Positions 27,713-53,421 of a stretch of DNA of 64,000 bases are shown here, in pieces. Position numbers and translations under genes: made by a program. Positions within the stretch are counted from its first letter, which is position 1, and the number at the start of each line of letters is the position of its first letter. The stretch comes from an uncultured delta proteobacterium. GTDB lineage: Bacteria; Desulfobacterota; Desulfobacteria; Desulfobacterales; JAFDCJ01. The notes beneath the pieces were generated by a model. It was given only the letters and a program-made list of their open reading frames with translations. It ran no database searches and was not told where the DNA came from. Location of the stretch: contig CAVYNY010000019.1 in assembly GCA_963769935.1 (NCBI GenBank), forward strand, positions 32,001-96,000, written 5' to 3'.

Positions 27713-28214
27713 GCCAAACCCCTCAAGTGAATTCCAGGAAAATCTGGATATCTTGCGACAAACCTACTTTTTCTCCGGACTTCCACTTGAAACCCTTAAA
27801 ATTTTCGCTTATCTTTGTACCAGGGAAAGATTCAGACAAGGTGAGCATATTTTCCGTCAGGACGAAGACGACGGCCAGGCGTTTTATATTATCGATGGCA
27901 AAGCCATACTCGAGCGCAGAAACAACGGCGATATTTCCGAGATCCGTGACTGTAAGGCCGGGGAATTTCTGGGAGGCTTGACGTTGCTGGGTGAAACGGG
28001 CCGATTATTTTCGCTGAAATCAGTTTCGAACACAACCTGCCTAGTATTGAGCCGGGAGAAATTTTCCAAAACCATGGAACAGTTTCCCGGTTTGATGATG
28101 AAGATATGCAAAGCCGTGGCCCAGCATATCGATACCTGGGAAAAGCGGTTTCTTGCCGACCAAGGGGATCAATGTGGTGGATGCATCGGAAGATTGGGAG
28201 TCACTCTTATCTGA
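27690..28214 (+). CDS. Cyclic nucleotide-binding domain protein
   Basis: FRQGEHIFRQDEDDGQAFYIIDG...GEFLGG...R; no HTH; overlaps the ABC gene end. Confidence 0.85.
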   Translation: MSLSERNKPNPSSEFQENLDILRQTYFFSGLPLETLKIFAYLCTRERFRQGEHIFRQDEDDGQAFYIIDGKAILERRNNGDISEIRDCKAGEFLGGLTLLGETGRLFSLKSVSNTTCLVLSREKFSKTMEQFPGLMMKICKAVAQHIDTWEKRFLADQGDQCGGCIGRLGVTLI

Positions 28215-29256: not shown

Positions 29257-29640
29257 TCATCGCAGGCCGAGGAGACCGCGCTGCCCCAGTTGTTTGATGA
29301 AACTAGTCACGGAAACCTCGGCTTCCCTGTTTTCCAAACGATGAGTTTCGGCAAAAATCCGGACAATCCGGCGCACGGATCGATTCCCATCCACCAAATC
29401 CCATACGGCGGTTCCCATAGCATCCAACTGAAGCTTTTTGGTATGAACTCGATCCGTTGGGCCTCCCAGACGCTTGGCCAGAGCAGCAATCCACGGCCTT
29501 GCCGTCAGCGGATATTCTAAGAGCACCTCCCCGTTCTCAAGCCGTGTTTCAGCAATATGAAGGCTTTTGGCCGGTCGGCATTCAAGCGCATGGCTGCGCG
29601 ATAGCTGACTTTTTCGATGCTTGCTTTTAAAGACTTTCAT
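29257..29640 (-). CDS. PqqD-family / RRE-like protein
   Basis: C-terminal LDAMGTAVWDLVDGNRSVRRIV...EAEVSVTSFIKQLGQRGLL matches the PqqD winged-helix pattern. Confidence 0.8.
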   Translation of the reverse strand: MKVFKSKHRKSQLSRSHALECRPAKSLHIAETRLENGEVLLEYPLTARPWIAALAKRLGGPTDRVHTKKLQLDAMGTAVWDLVDGNRSVRRIVRIFAETHRLENREAEVSVTSFIKQLGQRGLLGLR

Positions 29641-30583
29641 AATCGGTGCAGATCTGATTCAACAGTTGGAAATCAAGCGCGCGTTTGCTTTCGGCCCGAA
29701 CACCGAGCAGCCGGTTTTTATCGTTCAGATGCCACAGTCGATACCAAAAAAAAGACGGCTTTACTTTCAGCCGGCGGATGGCTCGCCGCCAGTCGTCGGG
29801 GGGCGACACCTGCCATTCTACTGCGGCGTATCCGTCAATCGTCGACCCTTGCGGCTGGCCGGCGGAAAAATCAGGGATCGTTCCGCAAAACCAGACGAGG
29901 TCCCGCCCGCCCAGCAAAGCGGCTGCCGGTGCCCAGCGGTAAAACCGGACGCTTTGCCGACCATCGGAAAATAAAAGTTCATATTTGCCGGTTTCGAACC
30001 GGTAGTGCAACAACCCGAATGGAGCGGGCAGTTTGAGCCGGAGGTCGAAAACTTCCCAGCGTATCATGCCGTCCGAGCTGTGGTCGCGGAAAGATTTGAG
30101 CACCGCCAGCAATACCTTTTCGCGTTCCGGTGAACTATCCCCCGTAAATTGAATCAGGGTTGCATTGCGGCATACAGGGCAAAACAGGATGGCTCCGCGC
30201 CCCCCTGCATTCTGGCTTTGCCACAGAAAACCGCTGGCCTCATAATCCGCCAGAGCCTTTTGCCAGGGCGGCGGCAGAAACCATTCAGCAATGCGGCCTC
30301 TGATGTTGCCGGATTGTGAAGCAGAGAGCCGCTTCAGGTGGGCTCTGTGGGAAAAAGTCCCTTTCACAGATCCCCACTTAACTTCCAGCACGGGTCCGGC
30401 TTCATCCTCCAGTATCAGATGCCGGGTGCCGATCCGGCCGATCTCCCATAGCGGCGGGGTCTTAAACCGGATTCCGTTCCAGGCGACGTGTCTCCAATGG
30501 TTGGTCAAATCGTTAACTTCTGACTTTAGACGCTTAAACAACAGGTTGTCAGATGATTTTGAACTAAAGCTACCGCGGCACAT
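29627..30583 (-). CDS. Hypothetical cytoplasmic Trp-rich protein with two similar halves
   Basis: Long ORF overlapping both neighbours; WNGIRFKTPPLW and WEVFDLRLKLPAPF begin similar segments; start uncertain (TTG at 30508 possible). Confidence 0.75.
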   Translation of the reverse strand: MCRGSFSSKSSDNLLFKRLKSEVNDLTNHWRHVAWNGIRFKTPPLWEIGRIGTRHLILEDEAGPVLEVKWGSVKGTFSHRAHLKRLSASQSGNIRGRIAEWFLPPPWQKALADYEASGFLWQSQNAGGRGAILFCPVCRNATLIQFTGDSSPEREKVLLAVLKSFRDHSSDGMIRWEVFDLRLKLPAPFGLLHYRFETGKYELLFSDGRQSVRFYRWAPAAALLGGRDLVWFCGTIPDFSAGQPQGSTIDGYAAVEWQVSPPDDWRRAIRRLKVKPSFFWYRLWHLNDKNRLLGVRAESKRALDFQLLNQICTDYESL

Positions 30584-31193
30584 AAAGGTTCCAGCCGGTC
30601 AACTCCGTCGTCATCGTTTTAGAATCCTGCTGGCGGAGTTTGTCTAGTTTATCCAGCCCCTTGACTTCGTAGCAGTGTTGATCCTCCTCAATCAGGCTGG
30701 TCATGGTGAGCTTGATGGCATTGCCCAGTTTTTCCTCCGTATCCATTGAGTTGTGCTGCAGGGTCATACTGATTCGGCTGCCGTCCTTGTCGACAAAAGA
30801 CCATTTCCAGCTGATCAGAATATGAAAAGGATCACCGCGATACTCATCCGGCTCACCGTATTTCGCCTTAATCTTCGCAAAAAGTTTTTTATAAAAATCT
30901 TCGCTCGAATCGTCATACTTGAGCTTGATCCTGACGATATGACCCGGCGCCGTGCAGGTGGCATAAGCAATCAATCCGGTTTTAATGCCTTCAAGCGGCC
31001 TTGTCTCCACTTCTTCAATGTTTTCCATATACCGGGTGGGCAAAGCGGTTTCCATGATGACATAGTCTTTGATATCTTCGATTCCGCCGTTTAATTTAAA
31101 AACCGCAATCTGATGCGGCGCATCGGCGGCCGGACAAACATTGGCAATCCATAACAGTGCTGCGCTGGCTGCTAAGACAAGTATCCGTTTCAT
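30570..31193 (-). CDS. Hypothetical secreted/periplasmic protein
   Basis: Sec-type signal MKRILVLAASAALLWIANVCPA; 207 aa. Confidence 0.8.
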   Translation of the reverse strand: MKRILVLAASAALLWIANVCPAADAPHQIAVFKLNGGIEDIKDYVIMETALPTRYMENIEEVETRPLEGIKTGLIAYATCTAPGHIVRIKLKYDDSSEDFYKKLFAKIKAKYGEPDEYRGDPFHILISWKWSFVDKDGSRISMTLQHNSMDTEEKLGNAIKLTMTSLIEEDQHCYEVKGLDKLDKLRQQDSKTMTTELTGWNLYVPR

Positions 31194-31488
31194 ACGGGGC
31201 TCCGATCTGATATTGACGAATGACGAATGTCGATTGACGAATTAAGGTATCCAATCAATTTAAATTTATTATAGTATAGGCAGACTACCAGGATGAAGCA
31301 AGCCTTATGAGCGACTATTTACAAACGATCTGCCGGCGGGGAATCTGATCTATACTTACATAAATTAAAAACCAGGATTTTCATATCCGTGAACCCTGAA
31401 CCTCTGATCCTCTAAACTCTAAACTCTGAACCCTGAACTTTGAACCTTGAACCCTCATTCTTCATTGGTCAATCTTCATTCGTCATTC

Positions 31489-33450
31489 CTAATATGCCAA
31501 TCGCTCCAGAGACTTGAGAATCAGCGTAATTCCCATGGCAAACATACCGGTCAATCCCATGCCGCAGGAAAAACCGGCCAGAAGCACCGGCGCATACTGC
31601 CGCCACACGGCGCCGTAACGCTTCAAAAAGAAAAAGCGCCCCAGCAGGGCTCCGACAACTTCCAGAATAAGCCCGTGGGGTGTACTCTGCCCCAGTCCGC
31701 GCACCATCCCGTAGACCAGCATGATCGGCAGTCCGAACAGGGTTAAGATCCCGTAAGTGACAACCCCCAGGCCCAGGCCCGCCAGCACATGCGTCCCGCT
31801 GAGGGCCTGGTAGAAAAGAGAATTGCCCTCCAGGGTGGAAGTCTGCATCAACAGCGTGTTCAACGCCTGCAAATGCCACAATTCCTGGGCATAGGGGTAG
31901 GCACTGGATGGAATCGGAGCTAAACGCCAGATGAATTGAGAAAACAGCAAGCTGGCCACCATCACGATGGGAAAAACCACAATTTCAGATTTGATGATGC
32001 CGCGAATGCTCGTACCGGTCAGTTCGATCTCGCGAAAACTGACCGTCGCCTTGCCGTAATTGTGGATCGGTATGGGTGCATACCAGATCTCAAGGCCGTG
32101 GTAACCGAAATACTTGGCGCCGGCAATGAAACTGGCTTCACGCACCAGCGGCAGACTGACAAACTGCCCGGCAATACCTTCCATGCGCGCGGTAATATAA
32201 GAGACAATCGGGGTGTAGATAAATCCGTAAGCCAGAAAGAACATCACCGGAAAGTGGGGAACCAGCCAGACGCACAACAGCACGTATGACGTGGTTGAAA
32301 AAACATAAATCCCGATCGAAATCCAGAAATTAAAATCCCCCCGGCCCGGAGGCGGGCGAAAAAGATCCTGCAAGGTGCCGCGCTGGGCCGCACTGGATTT
32401 GCTGAAAGATCGCAGAACATGCCAGATGCCGATCAAAGCAATGGCCAACCCCAGGCCGATGCCGAAGCTCAGGTAGAAATCGAAATTATTGGCAAAGATT
32501 GTATCGACCGTCAACATCCCCGGATGCCAGCGAGTCAGGATTCCATGGTGGTACAAAATCGGATTTGCCACAATGGTAATGATCAGCCCCACCAACCCGC
32601 CGATGACCGCCCAGAAAGGCAAGACCATTCCGATGAAAACCAAACCGAGGTCCAACTGAATGCCGGTGGCCACCGCCGGAAGAATATCCTCGGTATGCCC
32701 GGTCAATTCAACCCACGGTATGGGAATCAGTCGAATCGGTTCCAGAAGGATTAGACCGGAAACGGTGGGCAGCAAAACATAGATCGCTCCGAAAGCCAGC
32801 CCGATCACTCCGCCGATGGAAAACACGCGCCATTTCCAGCTTTTCTCCTTATCTTCGGCCGATTCAGCCAGCGCCATAGTTCCCAGAGCCGCCACCGGCG
32901 CCATGGGAAACGGCAGTTTTTCGACATCGGAGGTGATTCGAAAAAGGGCATAGCCCAGTCCGAACTGGTCGATGCGTTGGATAATCTGGGTTCCAATGAG
33001 CAGCAGGATTGGAATCAGCCAATCGCGATGATAAAAAGTCCGCTCCAACAGCGATGAAGAGTCCGGCGACGGTGCCACCCAGGAGGGAATCAAATCCGTC
33101 AGACCCAGCATCCGGGCCGCATCGGATTGCACGAGGTATTGGTTCCACAATAGGCCTTGAAACGGCGTATGCAGAGCTGCGCCGGCCATATAGTACAGCA
33201 GGAAAATTTCCTGCTGCTTCAGGTCACTGTAGGAACGCTTGGCCAGCTCGGCAAAAAGAATAATGGTTACCCAGCGAGCTGCCGGCCCGATTCCGGTGCC
33301 GATAACCAGCTGCAGATACATACTGCCCGGCATCATGAGAAAGCCGATAAAAATCGCCCCCACAACCGTCTTCCAGTTAAACCCCTCCTCGAAATGATCC
33401 GGGGTCTTTAAAAGATCTCTATACTCCTGAAGTTCTTTATCTTCGTACAT
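31489..33450 (-). CDS. OPT-superfamily-like 'peptide transporter' membrane protein
   Basis: 653 aa, many TM segments; LKQQEIFLL and VEKLPFPMAPV motifs typical of OPT relatives. Confidence 0.75.
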   Translation of the reverse strand: MYEDKELQEYRDLLKTPDHFEEGFNWKTVVGAIFIGFLMMPGSMYLQLVIGTGIGPAARWVTIILFAELAKRSYSDLKQQEIFLLYYMAGAALHTPFQGLLWNQYLVQSDAARMLGLTDLIPSWVAPSPDSSSLLERTFYHRDWLIPILLLIGTQIIQRIDQFGLGYALFRITSDVEKLPFPMAPVAALGTMALAESAEDKEKSWKWRVFSIGGVIGLAFGAIYVLLPTVSGLILLEPIRLIPIPWVELTGHTEDILPAVATGIQLDLGLVFIGMVLPFWAVIGGLVGLIITIVANPILYHHGILTRWHPGMLTVDTIFANNFDFYLSFGIGLGLAIALIGIWHVLRSFSKSSAAQRGTLQDLFRPPPGRGDFNFWISIGIYVFSTTSYVLLCVWLVPHFPVMFFLAYGFIYTPIVSYITARMEGIAGQFVSLPLVREASFIAGAKYFGYHGLEIWYAPIPIHNYGKATVSFREIELTGTSIRGIIKSEIVVFPIVMVASLLFSQFIWRLAPIPSSAYPYAQELWHLQALNTLLMQTSTLEGNSLFYQALSGTHVLAGLGLGVVTYGILTLFGLPIMLVYGMVRGLGQSTPHGLILEVVGALLGRFFFLKRYGAVWRQYAPVLLAGFSCGMGLTGMFAMGITLILKSLERLAY

Positions 33451-33464
33451 GAGCCGTGTTCCGT

Positions 33465-33877
33465 GCTACGGGTTGCGGGTTACGAGTTGCGTGGTGCGCG
33501 TTGCGCGGTGTGCAGTGTGTTGCGCGGCGCGGGTTACGCACTGTACATCGCGTATCCTGAGTAAGGCATTTCGTTAGCAACATTGCTTTTTATCCCGTTT
33601 AGTTCCATTCCTTTTCGACGTATTGAACGAAGTTATCAATTTTCTCTCTACGGTCCATATTGATGAAGTTTCTGCGAGAACTTATGTATTTTCACAGCTA
33701 AATCATATGATGCAGAATCAATCAAAAATGCCAGTGATTTTCGTCGGAACTGCCAAAGTTCAATGCAATATTTTATGCAATTATCGGGTTGACCGAATCT
33801 CTCACCTCGTTGCTGGCAATACGATTTTCGCAACCCGCACCTCGCACCTCGCACCTCGCAACCCGCAACCCGCATCT
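33465..33877. repeat. Inverted pair of degenerate heptamer arrays flanking an AT-rich spacer
   Basis: gcgggtt/acgagtt/gcgcggt units at about 33465-33540; complementary aacccgc/acctcgc units at about 33829-33877. Confidence 0.75.
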
Positions 33878-35916
33878 CAATTCGGCAATACCAGGTAGCT
33901 CGAATAACTGAACAATCCGTAAATGGCCCAGGAACCGGCCATCAGGAAATCGCCGATGATCAGGCCGATAAAAAAATTGCGCAGCTTTTTAAACAACCCC
34001 ACCCCGCCGTAGCGCATGCACAGTGCATTGCAAAGCCATCCGACGAAAAAGCTGAACCACAGGATTCGCATGGCAGAACTGTACGCGGTTAAATAGCCGA
34101 TGGGATGTATCGGCCACCAGTAAAACCGATGGTAGCAGATCACTAAAATCAGCATCACGAAGGCACCGGCCAGGGTGAATATTGTCACCCACTTGCTGGT
34201 TTCGATCGGCATTTCGATCAGGCTGTATACGTTGTCGTAAACCGCCACAGTTGTTTGGGTAGCCCAATCGAGCTCGAGCTCGCGCACACCGTATTTGTAG
34301 CACAGCGCAAGCATGGCCAGAAACGATACAATGATCCCGGCCATCAGCGTCAACATGATAAAGAAAAATATCCGGTGATTGTTTGAGGTTTTGTCCGTCA
34401 CCTTGCGGGCATGCAGCAGCGACGGCATGAGAGACTCCCGCAAATCAACAAAAAGCATTTTTTGAACGACAGCTGCCACAACAAGGCCGACGCTGGTGAA
34501 ATACCGGGTGCCGAAAAAAGCGATGACACCATCCAGCGGCGCTGCTGTCAGGGTAAAATACGCAATCCCGCCCTGGCAAATCACCCGAGTGGCCACCAGG
34601 GTAAAAAGGAAGAAAGCGCCGACCACCACAAAAGAAAAGAGGAACGGGATACCGAAATATGAGCACCAGATCACAATCGCAAATCCGCCGCCGACAGCCC
34701 CCCAGAATGCCAGTCGGGTGGAAATCCACTCCTGCTCTAAATTTTCATCCCTTTCAAGGCCGAAGCCTTTTCGCAGCATCTCCAGAAAATGAAACCGCGC
34801 CAGCCAGGCCAGAAACACGAAAAACACCAGATATGCGCCGATCATCTGAGTTTCTTCGGGTCGCGCTATGGTTGGGCCGAAGGTTACCCCCAGCGCCGCC
34901 TCCGGTATGTTTAGACCGAAGATGTATAGCAAGCCGATAAGCAGCGCTCCGGCAATATAGAACAGCCAGAATGAAAAGGATACCTGCTTGGACGTCAGAA
35001 AGGCGAATCCAATAAAAGCCGGATAAATATAGATTTTAAGTTTATAGAAGCCTGAAAAAAGACCCTGCTTGGGAAAATAATTGCCGGCCAGAACCAAGGT
35101 GGGAATCGACGGAACCGATGGATTGTAAAAATTCAGTCCGTTAATCAGGTGCAGACATACCGGCAATAAAATGCCGGCCAGCATAAATCGATTGGCGAAA
35201 AAACGACCCAGTTGATTATTGTCAAAGGCCTCCTGCATCAACAGCGGAACCTGGAGCAGAGGAAAATTCATCCGTTCGTGGTATAGTCCCTGTTTGCTCA
35301 AAAGGCTGACAATGCAGGCCAGCACGATATAGCACAGGAAAACAAACCCCGCCCATCCAAGCAGCGGTCCCAGCCAGGCATCCCAGGGGATGTTCGCCAG
35401 GACCTCCAGCCATCCCATCTGCCGGCCGTCGGTCAATCCGTTGTAAAGTTCTTCAATGGCTTCCTGACTTTGAGGATACCAGCTTTGGGGCAGCAGGGGC
35501 TGCAGGACTTGTTCCCAGCGGTTTTCAACCGTAGCGAAGTGATAGGGTGCCGTTAAATTGATGAAAAAGGTGCGCACCAGGCCGGTCCAGGCGATGCCGG
35601 ATAACAAAACCATCAGAGACCAGGAAACCAACAGTTCTTTGCCGGTCAGCAGACCCCGGCCTTTGAAAATTGTCCGGATTACGGCGGTAAAGATCATCAG
35701 CCAGATCAGTAAATAAAACGGTGCCAAAGGAAAATGGCCTCCGCCCAGGGGGGTCCCCTGCCGATAGGCATTGTTGAAAGGCGTGATGATGCAAATCGCA
35801 AGGGCCAGACAGGAGCCCAGCAATAAGGCGCGCAATCGGATCTTATCGCCGGAGGATGCCTCAACGGCCCGGGATTTCGATTCCTCAGTCAAAATGCTGT
35901 TTTGGCTTTCGGTCAT
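33877..35916 (-). CDS. Polytopic membrane protein, DUF6785/DUF6784-like (OPT-related)
   Basis: About 679 aa; LTGKELL, W.AWLGPL, ERMNFPLLQVP, WWPIHPIGY, FIGLIIGD. Confidence 0.75.
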   Translation of the reverse strand: MTESQNSILTEESKSRAVEASSGDKIRLRALLLGSCLALAICIITPFNNAYRQGTPLGGGHFPLAPFYLLIWLMIFTAVIRTIFKGRGLLTGKELLVSWSLMVLLSGIAWTGLVRTFFINLTAPYHFATVENRWEQVLQPLLPQSWYPQSQEAIEELYNGLTDGRQMGWLEVLANIPWDAWLGPLLGWAGFVFLCYIVLACIVSLLSKQGLYHERMNFPLLQVPLLMQEAFDNNQLGRFFANRFMLAGILLPVCLHLINGLNFYNPSVPSIPTLVLAGNYFPKQGLFSGFYKLKIYIYPAFIGFAFLTSKQVSFSFWLFYIAGALLIGLLYIFGLNIPEAALGVTFGPTIARPEETQMIGAYLVFFVFLAWLARFHFLEMLRKGFGLERDENLEQEWISTRLAFWGAVGGGFAIVIWCSYFGIPFLFSFVVVGAFFLFTLVATRVICQGGIAYFTLTAAPLDGVIAFFGTRYFTSVGLVVAAVVQKMLFVDLRESLMPSLLHARKVTDKTSNNHRIFFFIMLTLMAGIIVSFLAMLALCYKYGVRELELDWATQTTVAVYDNVYSLIEMPIETSKWVTIFTLAGAFVMLILVICYHRFYWWPIHPIGYLTAYSSAMRILWFSFFVGWLCNALCMRYGGVGLFKKLRNFFIGLIIGDFLMAGSWAIYGLFSYSSYLVLPN

Positions 35917-35941
35917 CAATCCTTCTTTTTGGTTTCAGTTA

Positions 35942-38900
35942 TCAAGGCCGCATGCCTAATTCTTCTTCCGCACTGATTAACAGCCGTTCGTAGTGTGCTT
36001 TCGTAGGGTCGTCAAAGGAGCGCCATAGCAATAATTGCTTGCGGACATCATGCAGAAAGGCTTTGTTGATCCGGCGCCAGGCATTGGCTTCGCCCGACTC
36101 ACGAATGAGTTGAACGTAAATTTCCAAAAATCCAGCCTCGTTTACAGCCGGTCTGAATATAATCGCCACCCGCTGCATGATTCCGAAATCAAAGGGTGCC
36201 AGCCAGACCCGTGCTTTTAACCGAAGGCATTGATCATATTCACATGCGCCTTCCGTACAATCATACCCGTCTTCAGTCAAACCGGGTGCTTTCTCGCAGA
36301 CAAAATCGAATTCGATATCGGCGGTGGAAAACATGCCATGGGAAATATCCTGGTGTCCCTCGAAATATTCATATATAAAGCCCCCGATACTGCGGTGCTC
36401 CTTGTAAGTCATTAAAAACGGGAGGGTCATTTCCATTTCATTGCCCCGCGCCTGGGGCATCGACCAGGAGCGGTTTACATCGGGCATCGCAATCTCGCCG
36501 GCCACTTTAGCGGGATAAATTACCGAAATCAGCACCACGACGATAACCAGAATCATGGCGGCAACACCGGACAGCGAAGAGTAATTCACGGTAATGCCCG
36601 ACCACAGAGCAGTCTCGGCAAAAAGTTTGGCGGAGGTTTGGGCCAGCAAATATCCGAACACCACGCTTAAGACGGCAAATGCCAGGGCCTCGGCAATGAA
36701 AAGAAAGGCTACATGGGACGGTGCCAGCCCCACCGAGGTATAGATCCCGATTTCACGCTTGCGCTCATAGACACTGCCGATCATGGTATTCAGGACAATA
36801 AATACAGAAATAATCAGCGGAATTATAATGTTGGGCACCCCGCTGTAATTCATGGTATCGCTGGCATGGTAAAGGTAGGTGCCGTCCTTTTCTCCGCTGA
36901 ACAGAGACAGTCCGAAGCGATCATTCAGAGTTTGAGCTGCAGTCGCGATCGATATGCCGGAGGGGGGTCGCACGGCGACGGCCTTTAAATGCCCCCCGGC
37001 CGCCAGCAGAAAGCGGTACGGCACGATGAGGGTCAAATCGCCGGCCACATGTTGATAGCGGCTCTGAAATTCCCGCACTTCATCGCCGGATTCCAGTGCT
37101 TCTTCTTCCACTTCGGTCAGCTCGGATGACATTTCCCGCGGAAAGGTGACCGGCGTTATGGGTTCGCCGTCCAGATCAACGTTCTCCTGCAATTTCCGGC
37201 CGGAAAAAATACCGACTACCTGAAACGGCATTCCCCAGAGATAAACGGTATGGTGCTGCGGCCGGGAAAGATCAATGTTCAATTGCTCCGCCATCCGCTC
37301 GGGCAAAAGTACGGCCTGCTCATCGCTTGGAAGCAGCCAGCGTCCCGCCACAAGAATTTTATCGAGTCCCGAGACCTGCGGTTCTTCAGCTGAAAGTCCC
37401 ACCATTCCCTGGGCTTCAGCAACACGGCCGTTGCGCATGACAGGAATACGATTGGTGCGAGTCCGATCTTCGTCTTCCAACCACACCCGGGGCACGACAA
37501 CAGCTTGATCGTCAAAGGCGTCGGCAATCATGCTGAAAGCTTTGGGCGGCAAACTTCTCCAATTGACGTTTTTTAACAGAAACCCCTGGTAGGGCGTCCG
37601 GCTGCTATACAAAACGCGAAAATGCCGCCGCATGGATTTAGCGGAAGTAAAACTCATGATCGTAAATGTCAAAATGACCAGCGTGGCACAAGTCAACGCC
37701 GTGCGCAAACGCCGACGTCTCAGGTTGCTGACGCCCAGCAGGAAGGCAGCTACGAATGCTTTCCAGCGGCCGATTTCACCGGATTGAACCACCTGGGCGC
37801 GAGTCTGAAGACGCTTCATTTCTTCCTCAAAGCGGAAGAAAATGATCAGCGTTACGATTAAGGAAAGTCCCATAATAAGGAATGCCAGAATGACAACCAT
37901 GGGACTATAGGCCAGCTGAAACGCGGGATGAACATTGTAGATCACAATGATCAGCGCCAGCAGGATGCTGCTGAAGGCAACGATACGCTTGTAAATATTG
38001 GCATAGCAAAACAGCAACCGTTCCAGACAGAAGGCAAAGGGAACAAACAGCGCAATGTAAAACAGCACACCGTAGAGAACATCTTTCTGGGTTTTTTCGA
38101 CGTCATCGTAAACCCGGCTGGCCAGGGCCCACGAGCCCTCGGCGGCTTCGAAAAATTTGCCGTACTGCTTGTTCTTTAAAGCAGATTCCGCGCTGCTCAA
38201 ATCCTTCTCTCCCGTCTGATGGAGGCTGCGAATGCGTTCGTTGTAGATGCCCCGCTCCTCCAGGTTGGCAATGCGCGGCGTCAGCAAGGCCCACATGTCC
38301 CGGGCGATTTTGTACTCAGTGCGATATAAAATCGGCCACTTATCAACCAGATAGCCCGTGCCTTGAGGGTTTTCGGCGTTGGCATTGAGCAGGATCAATT
38401 TTTTGCGCAGAATACTGTCGGAAAGCGTTATTTTCAGCGGTGTGCCGGCTTCCAGAAATACGGTCGTGATGCTGGAAGCGTTGCGGTAAAAAGAAACCCA
38501 GGTGTCGAGACGGCTCATAAAATAGTGCAGCGGTTCGGACTCGCGCCGGCCGTCAAGGATTTCTCCTCTATGCAGGTAGCGGAAAGTACGCGGCTCCATG
38601 AGATCAAACAGCGTTATGCCCTTGCAGGCGAACATAATCAGATCGGTTTCCATATGGCGGCGAAACATTTTCACCCGATAGGCATCTTTTCCGGTCTGCT
38701 TTTTGTCGATCGTCCATTGAATGTCACCGGTCATCGCGTCGAATTTATACCCTTCGAATATCACCTTGTGATAGCTGTTTTTTTTATCGGCCACGCCGCG
38801 CAGATGAAACTTTCCCATGTGGTCCACCATCACATAGTATCTGGCCGGACCCTGATAGCAAAGCAGCACGGTTCCCGGAGCCGGTTGATCGGCAAACAAC

Positions 38901-41029
38901 TCGCCGTGCCGTAAAAATTTGGCACTGCCGTTAATTTCACCAAATCCATTGCGCGGATAAATTCCTTCCTGCACCGCGGGCACCCGGGTCAGATATTGAA
39001 TCAACCCTGTCACCACGGCACTTTGGCGGAGAGCGAATCCAAAATCAACGTTTGCGGGCACATCGTGGGGGGTACCCCAGGCAGCGCGCGCATCGTTGAT
39101 GGTGACGAAGGTGAATCCATGATAACCGGCCAGAGCGGTAACCTCTCCGCCCAGAGGCGGCTGGTCCAGAAAGTAGCTCTGCCAGGATCGACGCTGACTC
39201 GGACGCAGGGTATCTTTGTACATTGCGGGAATCCCGAGTGACTTCTCAACATCCTGCGCACCCTTTTGCAGAATCTCTGCCAGCAAGGAATAAGCAGCGG
39301 TGCGGTTGATCCTTTCACGAAGGGGATACTGCCAGCCGTAATCGAACGCTCCGAAACCGTTCCCGTGACTGGAAAGGTGGAGCGACACGGCGGCGACCAG
39401 ATCGTAGACCTTGGCCTTGCCGCGAAATGATCGGGCGCTGCCGATCAGATCCAGCTGGGTTCTGGCATCGGCCAGAATGGCCCCCTGCTCATCGATCGCC
39501 CGCGGCACCATACGGGTCAGCACCTGTTGCTCCTCGGGCGATAATCCCGTAAAGCTCGGCATCCAGACCAGCCGCCTCAGCAACTGTCTTTCAGAGACCA
39601 AGTCTTTAATAACTTTCTGGTTGGCCGCGGTGTTTTCCTGCAGCCGAAGCCGCATCAAGCGGCGGGAAATTTTATCGGATTCAGTCTTTATTTGTTCTTC
39701 AAGGGCCATTTGGGCCAACGTTTGACTCTCGTTGTCCGCCGAATCTTCAGCCGCTGGTTTATCAAATGTTGCATGCTCCAGGGCCTTGATGGTTTTGCGG
39801 GTTTTCTTGATCAGAGCCTCTGATTCCCGCTTCATGTCACGCTGTATTATTGTCCGCGTCGTTAAACTCCAGACCAGTTCGCGCATCCCGGCCAGGGCCT
39901 GGGCATGGCCGCCGGTAGCCACCAGAATAACCGTTCTTTGCGGAGGATTATCCTTCAGATGTTGGGCTAAATACAGAAGTGTGGCCACGCCGCAGGCCTC
40001 ATCCGCACCAGGCGACAGTCCGGCTACCCAGGCCGAACTGTCATAAAAAGCGTCCACCATCACGGCCTGCTCCTGTAGTTTTGGGTCGGTCCCGGGGATG
40101 ATAGCGTAGATATTTTGGGAAATCACCTGTTCCCATTTTATTTCCGATGTCAGACGGACATTTTCGGCGACCCGTCCGGCGGGTGTTGTTTCAAAACCGG
40201 GAATAAGCTCCTGGAGACGATCCGACGAGATCCAGAAGCGCGGAAACTGAATTGGAGAAAGCTCAAACTTATCTTCAAAGAAGAATTTGGCGGAGTTGCC
40301 GCGGTCCACGTAGATCAAAGCTTTGGCCCCCAGATCGGCGGCATAAAGCCAGTTTTTACCGGATTCAAGCTCCATCAGGATGATCGATCCCTCTATATCT
40401 TTGCCTCTTAGGTCATCGAAACCACCGTTGCCGACGTAAATCAGGGGCGCCTGAATTCCGGTGGGCGGAATGGTCTGAGGCGCAACGGCGTTGCCATGGA
40501 TCGGTCTAATGGGAAGCGTGATAGCGCGATCTGCAATGGTCATCGCACTGTTTTTCGCTTTGACGACGGCAACTTCGAATTTTTGAGAATCGACCGTCTC
40601 AAAACCGAGAGCCGCAAAGCGGTCTTTTATATAGTCAGCTGCTGTACCGTTGCCGCTGCTGCCCGAAGATCGGTCCCCAAAAGAGGACAGTTCTTCCACC
40701 GTTTCCCGGAAGACTTTCCGATTCTGATCGGAAATTTCCGCCAGGGCGATAGGTCCGGAAGTGAAGAAAGTAAAAAGGAAGATCCCAATGCACAGGAGTA
40801 CTTTACGGCCGGCGGCCCGCGGCCGGCGGGATGCGGAATACTGGATGCCGGATGCTCGATACTCGATGCTCGATGCTGGATGCTGGATACTCGATGCTCG
40901 ATGCTCGGTACTGGATGCTCGATGCCTGCTGCTGGATACGCGGTGCGCGGTATTCAATCCAGGATAGCGAGATTCATGGCTTGGCGGAGACGCCGTTAAC
41001 GTATGATTGGGCAGAAGTTCTTTTTTCAT
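35942..41029 (-). CDS. Giant FtsX/MacB-type permease fused to an N-terminal M28-peptidase-like/PA domain
   Basis: Signal-like segment, GDRSSGS, PA-like insert, NIYAIIPG...AFYDS...GAD; NLRRRRLRTALT; SVYERKREIGIYTSVGLAP FtsX motif; start uncertain. Confidence 0.85.
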   Translation of the reverse strand: MKKELLPNHTLTASPPSHESRYPGLNTAHRVSSSRHRASSTEHRASSIQHPASSIEYRASGIQYSASRRPRAAGRKVLLCIGIFLFTFFTSGPIALAEISDQNRKVFRETVEELSSFGDRSSGSSGNGTAADYIKDRFAALGFETVDSQKFEVAVVKAKNSAMTIADRAITLPIRPIHGNAVAPQTIPPTGIQAPLIYVGNGGFDDLRGKDIEGSIILMELESGKNWLYAADLGAKALIYVDRGNSAKFFFEDKFELSPIQFPRFWISSDRLQELIPGFETTPAGRVAENVRLTSEIKWEQVISQNIYAIIPGTDPKLQEQAVMVDAFYDSSAWVAGLSPGADEACGVATLLYLAQHLKDNPPQRTVILVATGGHAQALAGMRELVWSLTTRTIIQRDMKRESEALIKKTRKTIKALEHATFDKPAAEDSADNESQTLAQMALEEQIKTESDKISRRLMRLRLQENTAANQKVIKDLVSERQLLRRLVWMPSFTGLSPEEQQVLTRMVPRAIDEQGAILADARTQLDLIGSARSFRGKAKVYDLVAAVSLHLSSHGNGFGAFDYGWQYPLRERINRTAAYSLLAEILQKGAQDVEKSLGIPAMYKDTLRPSQRRSWQSYFLDQPPLGGEVTALAGYHGFTFVTINDARAAWGTPHDVPANVDFGFALRQSAVVTGLIQYLTRVPAVQEGIYPRNGFGEINGSAKFLRHGELFADQPAPGTVLLCYQGPARYYVMVDHMGKFHLRGVADKKNSYHKVIFEGYKFDAMTGDIQWTIDKKQTGKDAYRVKMFRRHMETDLIMFACKGITLFDLMEPRTFRYLHRGEILDGRRESEPLHYFMSRLDTWVSFYRNASSITTVFLEAGTPLKITLSDSILRKKLILLNANAENPQGTGYLVDKWPILYRTEYKIARDMWALLTPRIANLEERGIYNERIRSLHQTGEKDLSSAESALKNKQYGKFFEAAEGSWALASRVYDDVEKTQKDVLYGVLFYIALFVPFAFCLERLLFCYANIYKRIVAFSSILLALIIVIYNVHPAFQLAYSPMVVILAFLIMGLSLIVTLIIFFRFEEEMKRLQTRAQVVQSGEIGRWKAFVAAFLLGVSNLRRRRLRTALTCATLVILTFTIMSFTSAKSMRRHFRVLYSSRTPYQGFLLKNVNWRSLPPKAFSMIADAFDDQAVVVPRVWLEDEDRTRTNRIPVMRNGRVAEAQGMVGLSAEEPQVSGLDKILVAGRWLLPSDEQAVLLPERMAEQLNIDLSRPQHHTVYLWGMPFQVVGIFSGRKLQENVDLDGEPITPVTFPREMSSELTEVEEEALESGDEVREFQSRYQHVAGDLTLIVPYRFLLAAGGHLKAVAVRPPSGISIATAAQTLNDRFGLSLFSGEKDGTYLYHASDTMNYSGVPNIIIPLIISVFIVLNTMIGSVYERKREIGIYTSVGLAPSHVAFLFIAEALAFAVLSVVFGYLLAQTSAKLFAETALWSGITVNYSSLSGVAAMILVIVVVLISVIYPAKVAGEIAMPDVNRSWSMPQARGNEMEMTLPFLMTYKEHRSIGGFIYEYFEGHQDISHGMFSTADIEFDFVCEKAPGLTEDGYDCTEGACEYDQCLRLKARVWLAPFDFGIMQRVAIIFRPAVNEAGFLEIYVQLIRESGEANAWRRINKAFLHDVRKQLLLWRSFDDPTKAHYERLLISAEEELGMRP
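40830..40955. repeat. Degenerate heptamer tandem array (GATGCTC-type, 18 units)
   Basis: gatgccg gatgctc gatactc gatgctc gatgctg...; 126 bp in strict 7-bp register. Confidence 0.9.
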
Positions 41030-41195
41030 TTTAAGGAATCCAGACCCAGTATCCAACAATCCGACACCAGAAGACCGAAGCCGGAGGTCGGAAGTCAAAT
41101 TACGGACATAATTTGCCTTATGACTTGAGCCTAAAGCCCACCGCCGGCCAAATCCAGCATCAATTATCCAGTATCGAGCATCCAGCAGCCAGCAG

Positions 41196-41933
41196 CTATT
41201 CCCGCGTCCCGATTTGCCCGATGGAAATTGACAGCTCTTCACGATCTTCGATTTTATCGACCCGTCCGTCCCGGACCCAAACCACCTGGTCGGAGACATT
41301 CAGCATTTTGAAGTCGTGGGTAGCAGATATGACGGTTACGCCGCGTTCCTGGCTCAGCCGCTTGAGCAGCGCTATGATTTCTTCGCCGGTTGTCAGATCC
41401 AGGTTGCCGGTCGGCTCATCAGCCAGAATGATGGCCGGATCATTGGCCAGCGCGCGGGCAACCGCAACCCGCTGCTGCTGTCCGCCGGAGAGCTCAAATG
41501 GTTTATGGCTGAAGCGGTCGCCCAGCCCCACCAATTCCAGGAGCTGCATGCCTTTTTCGACCGCAGCATCGTTGTGCATGCCGGCAAAAATCATCGGAAG
41601 GGTCACGTTTTCCAGAGCGGTCATAACCTGGATGATGTTAAAGGTCTGGAAAATATAGCCGATTTTGCGACAGCGCAGCCACGCCAGTTCGTAGGCATCC
41701 AACTGGGCGATATCAACCTCATCGATGAAGACCTTGCCGCTGGTCGGCTTGTCCAGACCGCCGATCATGTTAAACAGGGTACTTTTGCCGGACCCCGACG
41801 GCCCCATAATGGAAATGTAGTCACCTTTGGCAATTTCAAGGTTAACGCCTTTGAGGGCCTGCACTTCGATCTTTCCCAGCTTGAACACTTTGGTGACATT
41901 TGAAACGCGCACCACATTAGCAGCTTCTGCCAT
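41196..41933 (-). CDS. ABC ATP-binding protein (LolD/MacB-type)
   Basis: GPSGSGKST, GYIFQTFN, LSGGQQQRVA, LADEPTGNLD, ATHD. Confidence 0.95.
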   Translation of the reverse strand: MAEAANVVRVSNVTKVFKLGKIEVQALKGVNLEIAKGDYISIMGPSGSGKSTLFNMIGGLDKPTSGKVFIDEVDIAQLDAYELAWLRCRKIGYIFQTFNIIQVMTALENVTLPMIFAGMHNDAAVEKGMQLLELVGLGDRFSHKPFELSGGQQQRVAVARALANDPAIILADEPTGNLDLTTGEEIIALLKRLSQERGVTVISATHDFKMLNVSDQVVWVRDGRVDKIEDREELSISIGQIGTRE

Positions 41934-42205
41934 GGTTAAACTCCGATTCACGTAGTTTGAAGAGCGCTTCGCTTGAGGAGCGGCCTGCGGCCTTAAGGAG
42001 CAGCCCTGCGGGCTTTGAGGCAATAAAGGTCTGATCGGTTCCGCGAATTTGAAGTAGCTACCCAACCTCCCTGCTTCTTCCTCAGACTCTTGCGTTACTC
42101 CTTTTTCCAATTTCCGAATTTCGGCTTCAAACCTCCAATTCTGTCTTCATTCCTCTGTCATCTGCCTTCTGCCCTTTGCTCTCTGCTCCTTGCCCTCTGC
42201 GGTTA

Positions 42206-42904
42206 TCACTGCTCCACACGCATTGCCTCCACCGGCTGCATTCTGGCCGCAACCAGGGCCGGATAAAAAACACCCACTAGACTGAGCAGACAGCCCACTC
42301 CGGTTGCGACGGCAATTGAAACGATGACATTGTTCCAGGAAATCGCGGATAGGGCTACACTGCCAAAGCGCAGCCATCCGTTCAAGAGGGAAAAGACGCC
42401 GCCGAGAATGGCGCCGGCACCGGCACCGACCAGCCCCTGCATTCCGGCTTCCAGAAAAAAGAGGCGCAGGATGAAGCGGTCCAGTGCTCCCAGGCACTTC
42501 ATCGTGCCGATTTCTCGAAAACGTTCGGTCACCGCCATCAGCTGGGCATTTACGATGCCCACGACGCAGACCAGCAGGGAGAGAATGACAAGCCATCTTT
42601 GTTTGGGACTGCTGCCCACCGATGTATCACCGGGAGCAAGATCGTAGCCGGATGTAATCAGCATGCGAAGCAGTTCAGGATCATGCTTTTTCAGCATGCC
42701 GTTGGCAACATCGTCGCTGACACCCACAAAGCTCAAAAAGGAGACGGCCAGCACAAGACTCAGGGTAGTGATCAGGGAGCGGAAAAAGCGAACTTTAATG
42801 CTTTTCCAAGCAATTTCGACCGATTTTAGAAAAGGAAGTTTGACCAGGCGTTGCACTCGCTCCAGTTCTTTTTCCGAAACTGCTGGAATGGGTTTTTCGG
42901 CCAT
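42206..42904 (-). CDS. Small FtsX-like ABC permease
   Basis: RFFRSLIT, AVTERFREIGTMKCLGA, YPALVAARMQPVEAMR. Confidence 0.92.
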   Translation of the reverse strand: MAEKPIPAVSEKELERVQRLVKLPFLKSVEIAWKSIKVRFFRSLITTLSLVLAVSFLSFVGVSDDVANGMLKKHDPELLRMLITSGYDLAPGDTSVGSSPKQRWLVILSLLVCVVGIVNAQLMAVTERFREIGTMKCLGALDRFILRLFFLEAGMQGLVGAGAGAILGGVFSLLNGWLRFGSVALSAISWNNVIVSIAVATGVGCLLSLVGVFYPALVAARMQPVEAMRVEQ

Positions 42905-43168
42905 GATCAAAACCTCGCCTTCATTGTCCGGCTATCCGTCAAAAAAATAGGGGAGCAGGTCCCACCTGGGCAATGAAAAAGAAGGGGTGATAAAATGAGA
43001 AATTTCTCGCTCCGGCAGCAGTGGCTTGATTTGAACCCGCCGGGATTTTTATCAATCAGGAATTGACGATTTGCATCAATCTGTCCGCAACGCGCAGCCG
43101 AAAGGCTGACAATGGGTTCAATTACCATAATTGCGTGCCGGTGTAAATGAGAATGGTTCCTGACAGGG

Positions 43169-44115: not shown

Positions 44116-45603
44116 TTAGGAATGAAAGCGTCGCTTTAAGTGCTGGAGCCTGCCCAGAAAATATGCCCGGAAATGTAACCTGAGCAACCGTCCTTTGGAT
44201 CCTGACGTGGATTTGAATACGACGTCTTCGATCACCCGGTCGTCGGCCTGACCATTGGCAACCAACCAGATAATATTGTGCAGCACTTGTTTTTTTGAAA
44301 AGGGAAGCAGCTTCGGCACAAAGGCCCAGTTGCGCGCCATTCTTTTTTCCAAGCTGTCGACGCCGGCCTCATTTTCATCTATGTGCCCATCTGCCAACGC
44401 CTTGAGCGTCAGAGGATAATCCGGAAAATATTGCAGCGAGTACAGGTTGAAACGTCGGGGTTGCGGCAACTGTAATAAAAGCCGAATCGTTTCCTTTAAA
44501 GATTCCTCCGAATCATAAGGGTTATCGAGAATGAGGTCATATCTGACCTTAACGTCATATTTGGATATTTCCCGGGCCAGTTGAAGTATTTCGGTGTTTT
44601 TGCCCGGTCGATCGAACACCCGATTCCGAATGTGATCCGTGCCGGACTCGATGCCGATTTTGACTCGATGTAAACCGCTTTTTACCAGTCTTTCGATCAT
44701 CGACGATTTTATCAGCTGCGGGTTGTACTGAACCTTGAACGGCAATCCGATTTCCGCCGGATAGCGAGTTTCAAATTCTTCCAGCCAGGTCTCATCGGTA
44801 CCAAAATTTTCGTCATGAAACTCGACGATCCGTTTCTGATTGCCTGGAATGGCCAGTATTTCCTGCATCTCAGCGATGATGTTGCCAACCGAACGCCGGC
44901 GGCTGAAACGCCCCAATCCTTTATACATCGGCCGCAAGAGACTGTTTACGCAATAAGAACACGCAAAGGGACATCCCCGCGCCGGCATGACGGCCAAAAT
45001 CGGGTCTGATATGGTCGGATCTTGCCGGGTTACCTCGTTGGAACCGATAAAATAGAAGGAATCTCGGCTATAAGCTGGAAAAGGCAGGCGATCGAGATCC
45101 TGTATCAACGGTCGCATCGGATTCCTGATGACAGCGCCGTTGCTGTTTATCCAGAGGTTTTTAATGCGTCGATAATCGCTGTCATCCCGCAGCGCCGTGA
45201 CCAGCTCGGAGAATGCGTCTTCTCCTTCACCCATGCAAACCATGTCGGCATCTTTGACGCAGGCCGCCGGACTCAGTGTCGGATGAATGCCTCCCCATAT
45301 CACCGACGCCGACGAATTGGCTCGGATAATATTGGTTATCCGTTTGGCAACGTAGAGATAAGGAGAGTAGACACTTATGCCGACGAGTTTCGGATCGATT
45401 TCGGCAATTATTTCTTTTAGCAGCTGTTCTTCTTTTGAAGTTGGATAATGTACCGCATTCGTGTAAAAATCCTGAAAAAAGATCGTGAAGGGCCGAACGC
45501 CGGCTATATTTTCCAGCAGGGCATGCAGGATGCGGACCGGAAAGTTCTGATACCGGTATAAGGCCAGCAAGACGACTGGTATTGGTTGTCGGGAGGTGCT
45601 CAT
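44116..45603 (-). CDS. B12-binding-domain radical SAM protein
   Basis: WGGIHPT, GEGE, RGCPFACSYC (CxxxCxxC), DENF, GIESG; the frame is also open to an ATG at 45714. Confidence 0.92.
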   Translation of the reverse strand: MSTSRQPIPVVLLALYRYQNFPVRILHALLENIAGVRPFTIFFQDFYTNAVHYPTSKEEQLLKEIIAEIDPKLVGISVYSPYLYVAKRITNIIRANSSASVIWGGIHPTLSPAACVKDADMVCMGEGEDAFSELVTALRDDSDYRRIKNLWINSNGAVIRNPMRPLIQDLDRLPFPAYSRDSFYFIGSNEVTRQDPTISDPILAVMPARGCPFACSYCVNSLLRPMYKGLGRFSRRRSVGNIIAEMQEILAIPGNQKRIVEFHDENFGTDETWLEEFETRYPAEIGLPFKVQYNPQLIKSSMIERLVKSGLHRVKIGIESGTDHIRNRVFDRPGKNTEILQLAREISKYDVKVRYDLILDNPYDSEESLKETIRLLLQLPQPRRFNLYSLQYFPDYPLTLKALADGHIDENEAGVDSLEKRMARNWAFVPKLLPFSKKQVLHNIIWLVANGQADDRVIEDVVFKSTSGSKGRLLRLHFRAYFLGRLQHLKRRFHS

Positions 45604-45614
45604 CGTATAATATA

Positions 45615-45680
45615 GTTGGCCCGTTGGCCCGTTGGCCCGTTGGCCCGTTGGCCACCGTTGGCCCGTTGGCCCGTTGGCCC
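45615..45680. repeat. Near-perfect octamer tandem repeat (GTTGGCCC) x8
   Basis: Seven perfect units plus one unit carrying 2 extra bases. Confidence 0.95.
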
Positions 45681-45733
45681 GTTTCGGCAAACCGATAAAC
45701 CGGCAAACGGACATACCGGCAAAAATTGCTCAA

Positions 45734-47266
45734 CTATCGGAGACGGATTGGGTTGTCAAGGGAGATTTTCTGTGCGGTCGGTGTTTCGGCCAAGCCAGCT
45801 GCGCTGCGGCCGGCCCCACCTGCCGGATCAACTTCATAGGCTCTGATCGGCCGCGCAAATCCTTTCACGGTGATCATGCCCATCGGCCGGCAGTCAATAT
45901 GATCATTTACCAGGGCCCAGGTGGCATGGCTGATAAGAATTCTTCCCGGCTTGCAGGCCGTCTCCAGCCGGGAGGCCAGGTTGACCTGCATGCCCATGGC
46001 GCTGTACTCGCTTCTCCGGTGGGAGCCGAAACTGCCCACCGTCGCCATGCCGGTATTGATGCCGCATCGTATTTGCAGGGGAACCTCAACGCCCTCGCTG
46101 AACCATTTGTGCTGGAGTTTTCTCATTTTTTGCTGCATCTCGATCGCCATGTGTACGCAGCGCAAAGCGTGATCGCGGTCGTCGGTTCGGTCCGGTGCAC
46201 CGAAAAAAACAAACAGCGCATCTCCGGTAATATTGGCCAGGGTTCCCTCGTAATTTTGAATAATGTCATTCATACCGGAAAAATATTCGTTCAACAATCG
46301 GCCCATATCTTCGGGCTCCATGGCATCCGTGGCCCGGGTGAAATCCTTGATGTCGGAGAAGAACAGAGTCAATTTACGGCGACGGTGATCCCGCAGCGGT
46401 TCGACGTCTCCGGCCAGAATTTTCCCGATCAGCTGGGACGGCACGTATCTTGATAGAAATCTGTGGGCCTTGTCGATAATGCGCTTTTGCGTCTGAAGGT
46501 CCCGGGTCCTTAATTCAATCGTCTTTTCCTGCCTTAACCGGATATTGTTGACTTCTTCTATGCGGCGCTCAAGCTCTTCGATAATATCGCGTGACATCCG
46601 CAGGCGTATCAAATCCATATAACGGGAATAAAAAGCCTTGCTCTTCCAGTTGATATGATACTCACAGAAGGAATCGCCCTCGAATTGACACATCTTCTCT
46701 TCAACGACAGCCGGATTGCCCGTAAGTTTGCCGAGACCTTCATAGACGCCTTTGTTCATATCGCAGAAATGCCGGGAAATATCCGGGTCATCATCCCAGT
46801 GAATTCTGACAACCGCATACCCGCTTTGATTCTTGATGACCTTGATGGAACGATTGCGGTTAAACTTGGCATTTTCTTTGGGAAGGCGGTTGATGATGGT
46901 TTGAACACCGGCCAGCCGCATTAAAAATACCTGGGATCCCACTGCGGTTTTAAATATATTGCGGCCGGCTTTATAAATGGCCTGCGGATCGTTTAAAATC
47001 GCAATGGTGTTCCGGTAGACGCTTTTCAGCAAACCATTGCAAACCCAGTTGTGCGATTGCAGTAAATATTCGCTGGTAACCGGGGCGATTTTGCCGGTGT
47101 CCTCATCGCTGAACAGAAAGCTTTGACTGCCGGTGATGCCGTCGAAAAGTTCCCGGTAGGGCACCTCCGGCAGAACGCCTTTGATGTAATGCTCGCAGGT
47201 GAGGATATTGATGCAGCTGGTATCCTTTCTCATCGGATCGCCTGATATCAACGGAATCGCTTCCAT
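45734..47266 (-). CDS. Class III adenylate/guanylate cyclase with V4R-like N-terminal domain and coiled coil
   Basis: CQFEGDSFCEY; FSDIKDFT, GDALFVFFGAP, GINTG, VNLASRLE. Confidence 0.9.
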   Translation of the reverse strand: MEAIPLISGDPMRKDTSCINILTCEHYIKGVLPEVPYRELFDGITGSQSFLFSDEDTGKIAPVTSEYLLQSHNWVCNGLLKSVYRNTIAILNDPQAIYKAGRNIFKTAVGSQVFLMRLAGVQTIINRLPKENAKFNRNRSIKVIKNQSGYAVVRIHWDDDPDISRHFCDMNKGVYEGLGKLTGNPAVVEEKMCQFEGDSFCEYHINWKSKAFYSRYMDLIRLRMSRDIIEELERRIEEVNNIRLRQEKTIELRTRDLQTQKRIIDKAHRFLSRYVPSQLIGKILAGDVEPLRDHRRRKLTLFFSDIKDFTRATDAMEPEDMGRLLNEYFSGMNDIIQNYEGTLANITGDALFVFFGAPDRTDDRDHALRCVHMAIEMQQKMRKLQHKWFSEGVEVPLQIRCGINTGMATVGSFGSHRRSEYSAMGMQVNLASRLETACKPGRILISHATWALVNDHIDCRPMGMITVKGFARPIRAYEVDPAGGAGRSAAGLAETPTAQKISLDNPIRLR

Positions 47267-51045: not shown

Positions 51046-51141
51046 AATTAATCCGCCCTGATAAATAGCACATTCAGGGATACAAATTTTTTCTTAATAA
51101 CAAAAGACTTGAGTCAGGCCGAAGCGCCGGCGGCTTAATTA
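51043..51141. mobile_element. MITE-like ~100-bp element, family B copy 1
   Basis: cataattaatccgcc-ctga...ttcaggg...ggcggcttaatta; homologous to 60547-60661. Confidence 0.65.
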
Positions 51142-51279
51142 CTTTATGCTGCGCACATTTTTTAAGATTGGACTATTAATCGAAGTTTACTATCACGGTG
51201 CTTACAAACAACAAGTATATTTTATACATATACAGTGCACCGCGTATTTGACCGAATGCTGTTTCAAAATGGCATTGAT

Positions 51280-53417: not shown

Positions 53418-53421
53418 TGGA

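Follow-up and report, generated by a model that had tools for sequence, protein, structure and literature searches.

The 64,000-nt stretch of DNA analyzed here (the window), from an uncultured delta proteobacterium, holds a type VII ATP-binding cassette (ABC) system that is genetically tied to a pair of OPT-like membrane proteins. It is a new gene system built from known folds, for which a mechanism can only be proposed. Its eight open reading frames (ORFs; g1–g8) all lie on the minus strand within 29257–42910, in the order stated by an earlier note on this DNA, which took them for one eight-part envelope machine. Five of them (g1–g5) form a core encoding two FtsX-type permeases, an ATPase, and the OPT-like pair, and in Desulfobacterota this module genetically tracks PPP-type glycan genes. 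We tentatively favor, at somewhat less than even confidence and by analogy, a reading in which the five core proteins would act as an ATP-assisted receptor-plus-carrier complex, capturing the PPP-type glycan and re-importing it.

The gene assignments of the earlier note were borne out by Pfam (FtsX, ABC_tran, M28 with FtsX, DUF6785 with DUF6784, PqqD), by the OPT fold of g5, and by the two repeats of g7. Its statement that no such system had been described also agrees with our literature searches (for DUF6785, and for FtsX with M28, OPT, and PqqD), which returned no description of the module, most subscription papers lying outside the search.

Distribution of the module and its link to PPP-type genes

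Relatives of g5 numbered at least 4465 in the 90%-clustered collection, and 1019 were found among the 50% representatives at E ≤0.001. Among 20 proteins looked up, the four clusters with a taxon were named as Lentisphaerae, Candidatus Poribacteria, Bathyarchaeia, and Thermoprotei. Viral contigs contained no relatives of g5, and the plasmid collection gave no match to it. Desulfobacterales assemblies supplied the close homologues, and Desulfopila sp. IMCC35008 and Desulfogranum marinum DSM 2058 are among the cultured strains that carry the module.

The earlier note had asked whether these genes occur together elsewhere, and they do. Among 80 named genome loci, all from close relatives, 36 were at least 20 kb long; 33 of these long Desulfobacterota loci contained g1–g5, 32 additionally g7 and g8, and 23 all eight genes. 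A second sample, of 80 distant metagenome loci that were often short, had g3 at 53 loci, g7 at 30, g8 at 23, g2 at 22, g1 at 17, g4 at 12, and g6 at none. With core genes present at such distant loci too, the core is shared across lineages and rearranged, and is no chance feature of one locus.

PPP, the phazolicin-protecting polysaccharide, is a putative surface polysaccharide of Sinorhizobium meliloti that protects against phazolicin and, in the part of the report available, requires nine genes (PMC10128002). We profiled three markers of the module and of this pathway in a single draw from the phylum, comprising 301 genomes that are each at least 90% complete. The gene g5 was present in 19, and the long insert of the PPP-type exporter in exactly the same 19; an SMb21266-like glycosyltransferase was found in these and, as a weak match, in one more (20 of 301). 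Both g3 and g4 accompanied g5 in all 18 genomes other than the source genome, and in none of three controls. Twelve families are represented among the 19 genomes; all three markers were lacking in six genomes of the same order. Exporter and g5 were on different contigs in 14 of the 18, which fragmentation explains in part, and a control gene beside g1, for an O-methyltransferase, occurred in 16 of the 301 genomes, two of them within the 19.

This pattern bears on an alternative whereby the module is a general importer of peptides or glycopeptides: the pseudo-peptidase domain of g3 would bind them, the OPT pair would import them, and g8, which has the fold of a RiPP recognition element (RRE), would receive them, the link to glycan genes being regulatory or historical. 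OPT, M28/PA, and RRE folds are indeed all present, the module occurs without PPP neighbors in other lineages, and one distant homologue of g3 contains a LysM insert (locus L140, whose g5 is 72% identical to a Poribacteria-cluster protein). Such an importer nevertheless leaves unexplained both the 19/19 co-occurrence with an often unlinked exporter and the fact that g6–g8 travel with that exporter; moreover, the search for the RRE came up empty in 10 of the 18 genomes, one of these having a weak match only. We consider this alternative improbable. The peptide substrate that the earlier note had derived from the RRE is not supported, as the genomic evidence in the phylum points to a glycan pathway, and the polymer that it had offered as another option is the better of its substrates.

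Folds of the core proteins

The small permease g1 (42206–42910; 234 residues from a TTG, with an ATG at 42904) gave a Pfam FtsX match at E 5.5e-15 and, by hydropathy, has a very short outer loop. The ATPase g2 (41196–41933; 245 residues) is of the LolD/MacB type by Pfam and NCBIfam: its best NCBIfam matches were LolD, MacB, and FtsE (E 1e-67 to 1e-61, all under the equivalog cut-offs), LolD being the best. Homologues of g2, 71–93% identical, aligned from residue 60 of its longest ORF, and its start is probably at 41933. FtsX (PF02687) was above the cut-off in both g1 and g3, and the top PDB sequence matches to the C-terminal part of g3 were MacB chains; we infer an ABC transmembrane heterodimer in which g1 pairs with the FtsX module of g3.

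The giant permease g3 (35942–41029) combines a signal-like segment, an M28+PA ectodomain that includes beta domains and a helical insertion, three further transmembrane segments, an FtsX module with a second ectodomain, and a conserved C-terminal domain of about 180 residues, for which a PDB sequence search gave no match. Conservation was strong in the three extra membrane segments and in the C-terminal domain. The start of g3 is uncertain: its longest ORF (1785 residues) reaches 41299 and the true start is downstream of that, a stretch of degenerate repeats inside the 5′ part of this ORF obscuring its position.

A model of the first ectodomain (885 residues, pLDDT 94.5) shows the fold of an M28 aminopeptidase, to which a PA domain and a long helical insertion are added. 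Its profile matched 2ek8 at E 1e-21, and its fold matched 1rtq (Z 25.8, rmsd 2.7, 263 aligned) and a glycosylphosphatidylinositol (GPI)-transamidase chain, 7w72_A (Z 18.8, rmsd 4.2, 269 aligned), such fold matches being informative up to about residue 600 of the model. An active M28 site has His/Asp/Glu/Asp/His zinc ligands and a general-base Glu. The zinc site was compared over 94 sequences, its first positions being mapped via the 2ek8 alignment and the last two placed by what we take to be the M28 motifs. The first His site holds F60/Y25, the Glu-Glu site H83 followed by A38/F21/G16, and the last His site G57/D29; the bridging Asp (D60/E31) and the third ligand (H57/D32) are retained. On this alignment the domain appears to lack three of its five zinc ligands and is therefore not a standard peptidase. 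Of the earlier note's proposal that a substrate is captured or processed and imported, import stays plausible, but processing is not supported, the M28 site being dismantled.

M28/PA pseudo-peptidase ectodomains are used in binding, not catalysis; in the transferrin receptor, the equivalent domain serves binding. The ectodomain of g3 shares its fold with this receptor, nicastrin, nicalin, and the GPI-transamidase subunit, but differs from them in being prokaryotic, fused to an ABC permease, and enlarged by further beta domains and a long insertion of helices.

The GPI-transamidase match, together with weak profile matches to nicalin and nicastrin, would also suit an outward-acting complex. Its motor would extract the glycan, or a lipid-linked form of it, from the inner membrane and assemble, anchor, or hand it on in the envelope, with the OPT-fold proteins recycling a carrier or serving as scaffolds. 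Such a role draws on the same linkage evidence as re-import, and type VII systems pull molecules out of the membrane, as stated in the available part of PMC12646458. However, the GPI match (Z 18.8) lies below those to ordinary aminopeptidases (Z 25.8), the pathway has its own exporter, and rhizobia make protective PPP, yet no g5 homologue was found on cluster-bearing plasmids. We regard the outward role as unlikely, if worth serious attention.

With characterized type VII ABC systems (LolCDE, MacB, FtsEX-EnvC, YbbAP-TesA; PMC12646458, seen in part), the module shares a LolD/MacB-type ATPase, two different FtsX-type permeases, and a large outer domain, and with YbbAP-TesA in particular the pairing of an ABC system with a hydrolase. 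Unlike in those systems, the hydrolase-fold domain is fused and without a metal site, further conserved transmembrane segments are present along with a C-terminal domain, two OPT-like proteins are inherited with the system, and no gene for a membrane-fusion protein or LolA-like protein was recognized in the module.

At three distant loci (L136, L137, and L140) the giants reach 2400–2670 residues through large insertions, and no small FtsX gene was detected near them. The LysM repeats inserted in the giant of L140 hint at an amino-sugar ligand.

The membrane protein g5 (31489–33450; 653 residues) is 71–86% identical across the phylum. A model built from 64 sequences (pLDDT 86, pTM 0.87) had barley YS1 (7wst) as its top Foldseek match, with E 7.6e-11, a TM-score of 0.65, and probability 1.00; the next unrelated match was at E 8.6e-3. 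By this model, g5 has the OPT/Yellow-Stripe fold. A Pfam scan gave no match to PF03169 in g4 or g5 at E 0.05, neither Pfam nor NCBIfam assigned a significant family to g5, g6, or g7, and the g5 profile drew chance matches only from the PDB sequences. PF03169 was, all the same, matched by 19 of 43 g5 homologues scanned, 17 of them above the cut-off. A weak match of g5 to STT3 (E 0.0037) was dropped given the OPT fold match.

The neighboring g4 (33877–35919) is a polytopic DUF6785+DUF6784 protein by Pfam. It aligned with g5 over 578 columns (hhalign, 97.9%, E 4.8e-13), so we read both as OPT-superfamily proteins, g4 being, by this profile link, a distant paralogue of g5; Atlas neighbors of g4 scored 0.87–0.89. 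The likeness to the OPT/Yellow-Stripe family (PF03169; YS1, 7wst/7wsr) is that the g5 model matches YS1 over its full length; the differences are that g4 and g5 have no PF03169 match, that identity to YS1 is 12–14%, and that two divergent paralogues, tied to an ABC ATPase, stand in place of one gene.

Some longer g5 homologues of 800–1080 residues (P0122, P0126, P0127, P0130, P0145, and P0148) contain additional beta-propeller, PDZ, or FGE-sulfatase-like domains, the added domain being mostly inserted past about residue 545.

Glycan genes beside the module and its proposed role

The system reaches past 29257–42904 on both sides. Beyond g8, on the plus strand, lie a homologue of SMb21269 (25196–27712; 27% identity, E 7e-68), an ABC exporter whose ATPase region contains a long insert, and behind it, as in rhizobia, a cyclic nucleotide (cNMP)-binding protein assigned by Pfam (27690–28214). 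Before g1, on the minus strand, are a GT28_C-like glycosyltransferase similar to SMb21266 (52242–53417; 38%, E 4e-48) and a second such copy (49858–51045; 34%, E 3e-42), a polysaccharide-deacetylase-like protein (51280–52101), and an operon with a histidine phosphatase (59861–60490), a GT4 glycosyltransferase similar to SMb21252 (60646–61821; 31%, E 9e-39), and another similar to RedB (SMb21265; 62076–63332; 38%, E 5e-66). In tblastn searches with these five rhizobial proteins, RedA included (E 2e-43), the best matches in the genome were all on the contig of the window. The redA-like gene itself (contig ~95330–96530, which is window position 63330 or so to past the window's end) appears interrupted, with a 187-residue N-terminal ORF and the rest matching in separate pieces; its homologues have about 400 residues, and either a pseudogene or a mistake in the assembly could account for this.

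Similar neighbors recur at other loci. GT28_C-like and GT4 glycosyltransferases, the histidine phosphatase, and the polysaccharide deacetylase recur around g1, the deacetylase homologue immediately before it in several genomes, while the recurrent genes past g8 are those for the long-insert exporter, the cNMP protein, a STAS protein, and an anti-sigma factor; all of these are present in or beside the window. At least one glycosyltransferase, deacetylase, or exporter gene was found in 30 of the 36 long loci. Locus L223 shows the unbroken run redA-redB-GT4-phosphatase-glycosyltransferase-deacetylase-g1-g2-g3, and L219 and L014 taken together show the same run plus one Omp85-family gene before g1.

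In S. meliloti strain 1021, the glycosyltransferase neighborhood corresponds by its coordinates to the PPP cluster smb21252–smb21271, and the glycosyltransferase matched 267 plasmid records, mostly of Rhizobium (143) and Sinorhizobium (80). We inspected three of these neighborhoods. In S. meliloti and Phyllobacterium the glycosyltransferase genes adjoin a Dpp-type ABC importer (ATPase, binding protein, two permeases) and an adenylate cyclase, and in S. meliloti the exporter and cNMP protein come after the importer region. The locus described here thus resembles the S. meliloti cluster in its homologues of SMb21252, RedA, RedB, SMb21266, and SMb21269, its cNMP protein, and its deacetylase-type genes, but has g1–g8 instead of the Dpp-type importer SMb21260–63, and a histidine phosphatase in addition. 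The SMb21261-type binding protein gave no match in the source genome or in the 19 g5-bearing genomes. A homologue of SMb21256 is present elsewhere in the source genome, where homologues of SMb21271 and of the lyase were not found.

Published transposon sequencing under phazolicin (PMC10128002, Data Set S1, seen in part) gave log2 fold changes of −3.5 to −5.4 for the synthesis and export genes and of −0.41 to +0.53 (adjusted p 1) for SMb21260–63, which we identified as the importer by position. The rhizobial importer is therefore dispensable for protection, as a recycling arm would be. Seven of the nine PPP genes were up-regulated under predation, according to the accessible part of another report (PMC10315480).

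We favor re-import of the glycan because the pathway has its own enzymes and exporter, the module sits in the slot of the dispensable importer, and its parts include carrier folds of the uptake type and a dead enzyme that resembles a receptor. Cytoplasmic enzymes similar to RedA, RedB, SMb21266, and SMb21252 would synthesize the glycan, for delivery to the periplasm by the cNMP-linked exporter. There, the dead M28/PA domain would serve as a binding head, much as in the transferrin receptor, while g1, the FtsX module of g3, and two g2 ATPases would assemble into a type VII ABC motor. ATP-driven movement would pass the ligand to a g4/g5 OPT-fold heterodimer and on inward, with g6–g8 as optional adaptors joining the import arm to the exporter arm. 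The module would in this way take the job of the Dpp-type importer in the rhizobial cluster, non-orthologously. Barley YS1, the solved fold relative of g5, is an uptake carrier (PMC9691689, in the part available).

A bolder claim, possible but more doubtful, is that the module represents a new importer class, in which a type VII ABC motor, of a kind so far associated with pushing or extraction, would power a fused pseudo-peptidase receptor that loads a heterodimeric OPT-fold carrier. This class would occur in several bacterial phyla, with OPT-like archaeal relatives, and in sulfate reducers would be the recycling arm of the same protective glycan as in rhizobia.

Several points weigh against re-import. 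The direction of transport is suggested by analogy only and the physical coupling is inferred, uptake of PPP by the rhizobial importer is itself a presumption, and the accessible part of PMC10128002 speculates that PPP is a surface polysaccharide. The available part of PMC12646458 describes the characterized type VII ABC systems as working outward or by mechanical action. The third neighborhood inspected in the plasmid collection, in Manganitrophus, has the glycosyltransferase and neither type of importer. In a sample of 41 genomes of relatives, six were discordant, most of them incomplete: G029 (98% complete) and G030 (60%) had DUF6785 but no exporter, and 4 of 22 congeners (79–90% complete) had the exporter but no DUF6785. 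Related genomes, besides, are not independent observations. Finally, no convincing PPP-type neighbor was found at the 80 distant metagenome loci, so outside Desulfobacterota the chassis may serve other ligands.

The regulatory genes near the module suggest a further alternative, in which the complex would monitor the periplasmic glycan and signal to synthesis and export through g7/g8, the cNMP protein, and the anti-sigma/STAS pair, on the model of BceAB-like flux sensing. The cNMP, anti-sigma, and STAS genes occur at 34, 36, and 38 of 100 loci, respectively, and an adenylate cyclase is encoded both in the window and in the rhizobial clusters. A mere sensor, however, sits poorly with the complete carrier fold that g5 retains at the identity given above, with the lack of a kinase conserved in the module, and with the dispensability of g7/g8 in about half of the genomes; we judge it very unlikely.

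If re-import is true, two transporter superfamilies not described as cooperating in the literature found would be joined, and a functional context would open up for DUF6785/DUF6784 as well as for many OPT-like proteins of prokaryotes. The link to PPP makes an orphan machine testable, by offering a candidate ligand and a tractable source, S. meliloti, with published mutants. It also extends the range of PPP-type pathways from rhizobia to sulfate-reducing sediment bacteria.

Accessory genes and minor features of the locus

The three remaining genes, g6–g8, are accessory and not core, so that the eight-part machine of the earlier note is not supported as an obligate unit: of the 18 core-bearing genomes other than the source genome, 8 have both g7 and g8, g7 always accompanied by g8, and g6, absent from all 80 distant loci, was seen only at Desulfobacterota loci. 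Away from the core, g6-g7-g8 sit behind the exporter and cNMP gene (L205, L206, and L209). No full-length paralogues of g3–g8 were found in the 8.0-Mb source genome.

By hydropathy, g6 (30570–31193) is an exported protein without a family, having a single N-terminal hydrophobic segment. The soluble g7 (29627–30508) is internally duplicated, its two repeats aligning at 93.7% in hhalign (E 2e-7), and contains a conserved CxxC (46/47 and 45/47) and His (44/47) that could form a metal site. Its named leads in the Atlas were weak (0.81–0.82), and a PDB sequence search with it gave no match. Homologues of g7 have about 293 residues and align from residue 26, so its start is probably the TTG at 30508, leaving a 61-nt gap after g6. 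The earlier note had the last three genes overlapping, which is right for g7/g8 (14 nt), the only clear overlap, but probably not for g6/g7.

The PqqD/RRE-fold protein g8 (29257–29640; Pfam PqqD, PF05402, above the cut-off at E 2.4e-9) resembles the RREs of lasso-peptide systems and PqqD, its profile matching TbiB1 (E 1.4e-7) and PqqD. No conserved maturase for ribosomally synthesized and post-translationally modified peptides was found among the recurring neighbors, in a survey of ORFs of 70 residues or more.

Two neighbors at distant loci were rejected as PPP-type: a GT28-like gene at L198, which is beside ftsW and is probably MurG, and an exporter-like gene at L200, which has no long insert. 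A rhizobial-type binding protein, which none of the 19 has, turned up in six genomes that all belong to a single other family; these SMb21261-like proteins (30–36% identity; L117–L123), which come without exporter and glycosyltransferase, were treated as another system.

The source genome has a second PPP-type exporter copy, 55% identical and off the cluster (contig C24, 1023–3539; L116), adjoining a gene whose 704-residue product looks by eye like a phospholipase-D/DedA-type fusion; second exporter copies are common in congeners. Between the glycosyltransferases and g1 (44116–58352), the window encodes a B12 radical SAM protein, which recurs beside the module in 2 of 100 loci, the adenylate cyclase, TPR proteins, SDR and GNAT proteins, and two proteins without a family (55136–56350 and 56166–56795). 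Other lineages have genes of their own just upstream of g1, for an Omp85-family protein (L014:2253–3569), a PMT-family glycosyltransferase (L011:1422–3311), or, in three related loci, a poly-gamma-glutamate hydrolase (L022:1644–2306).

Contigs from sediment RNA libraries (four runs of one study) span most of the region; they are no proof of transcription and were not used. The intergenic or leader DNA at 33450–33877, 31193–31489, and 40830–40960 is built from short degenerate repeats.

In genomes without g7 and g8, the genes following the exporter, which include those for S58 peptidases and rhodanese proteins, were rejected as divergent forms of g6, g7, or g8 (hhalign <1%). At four such loci (L210, L212, L213, and L214), an S58 peptidase gene lies right behind the exporter and cNMP gene, preceded in three of them by a gene for an unassigned HD-like protein.

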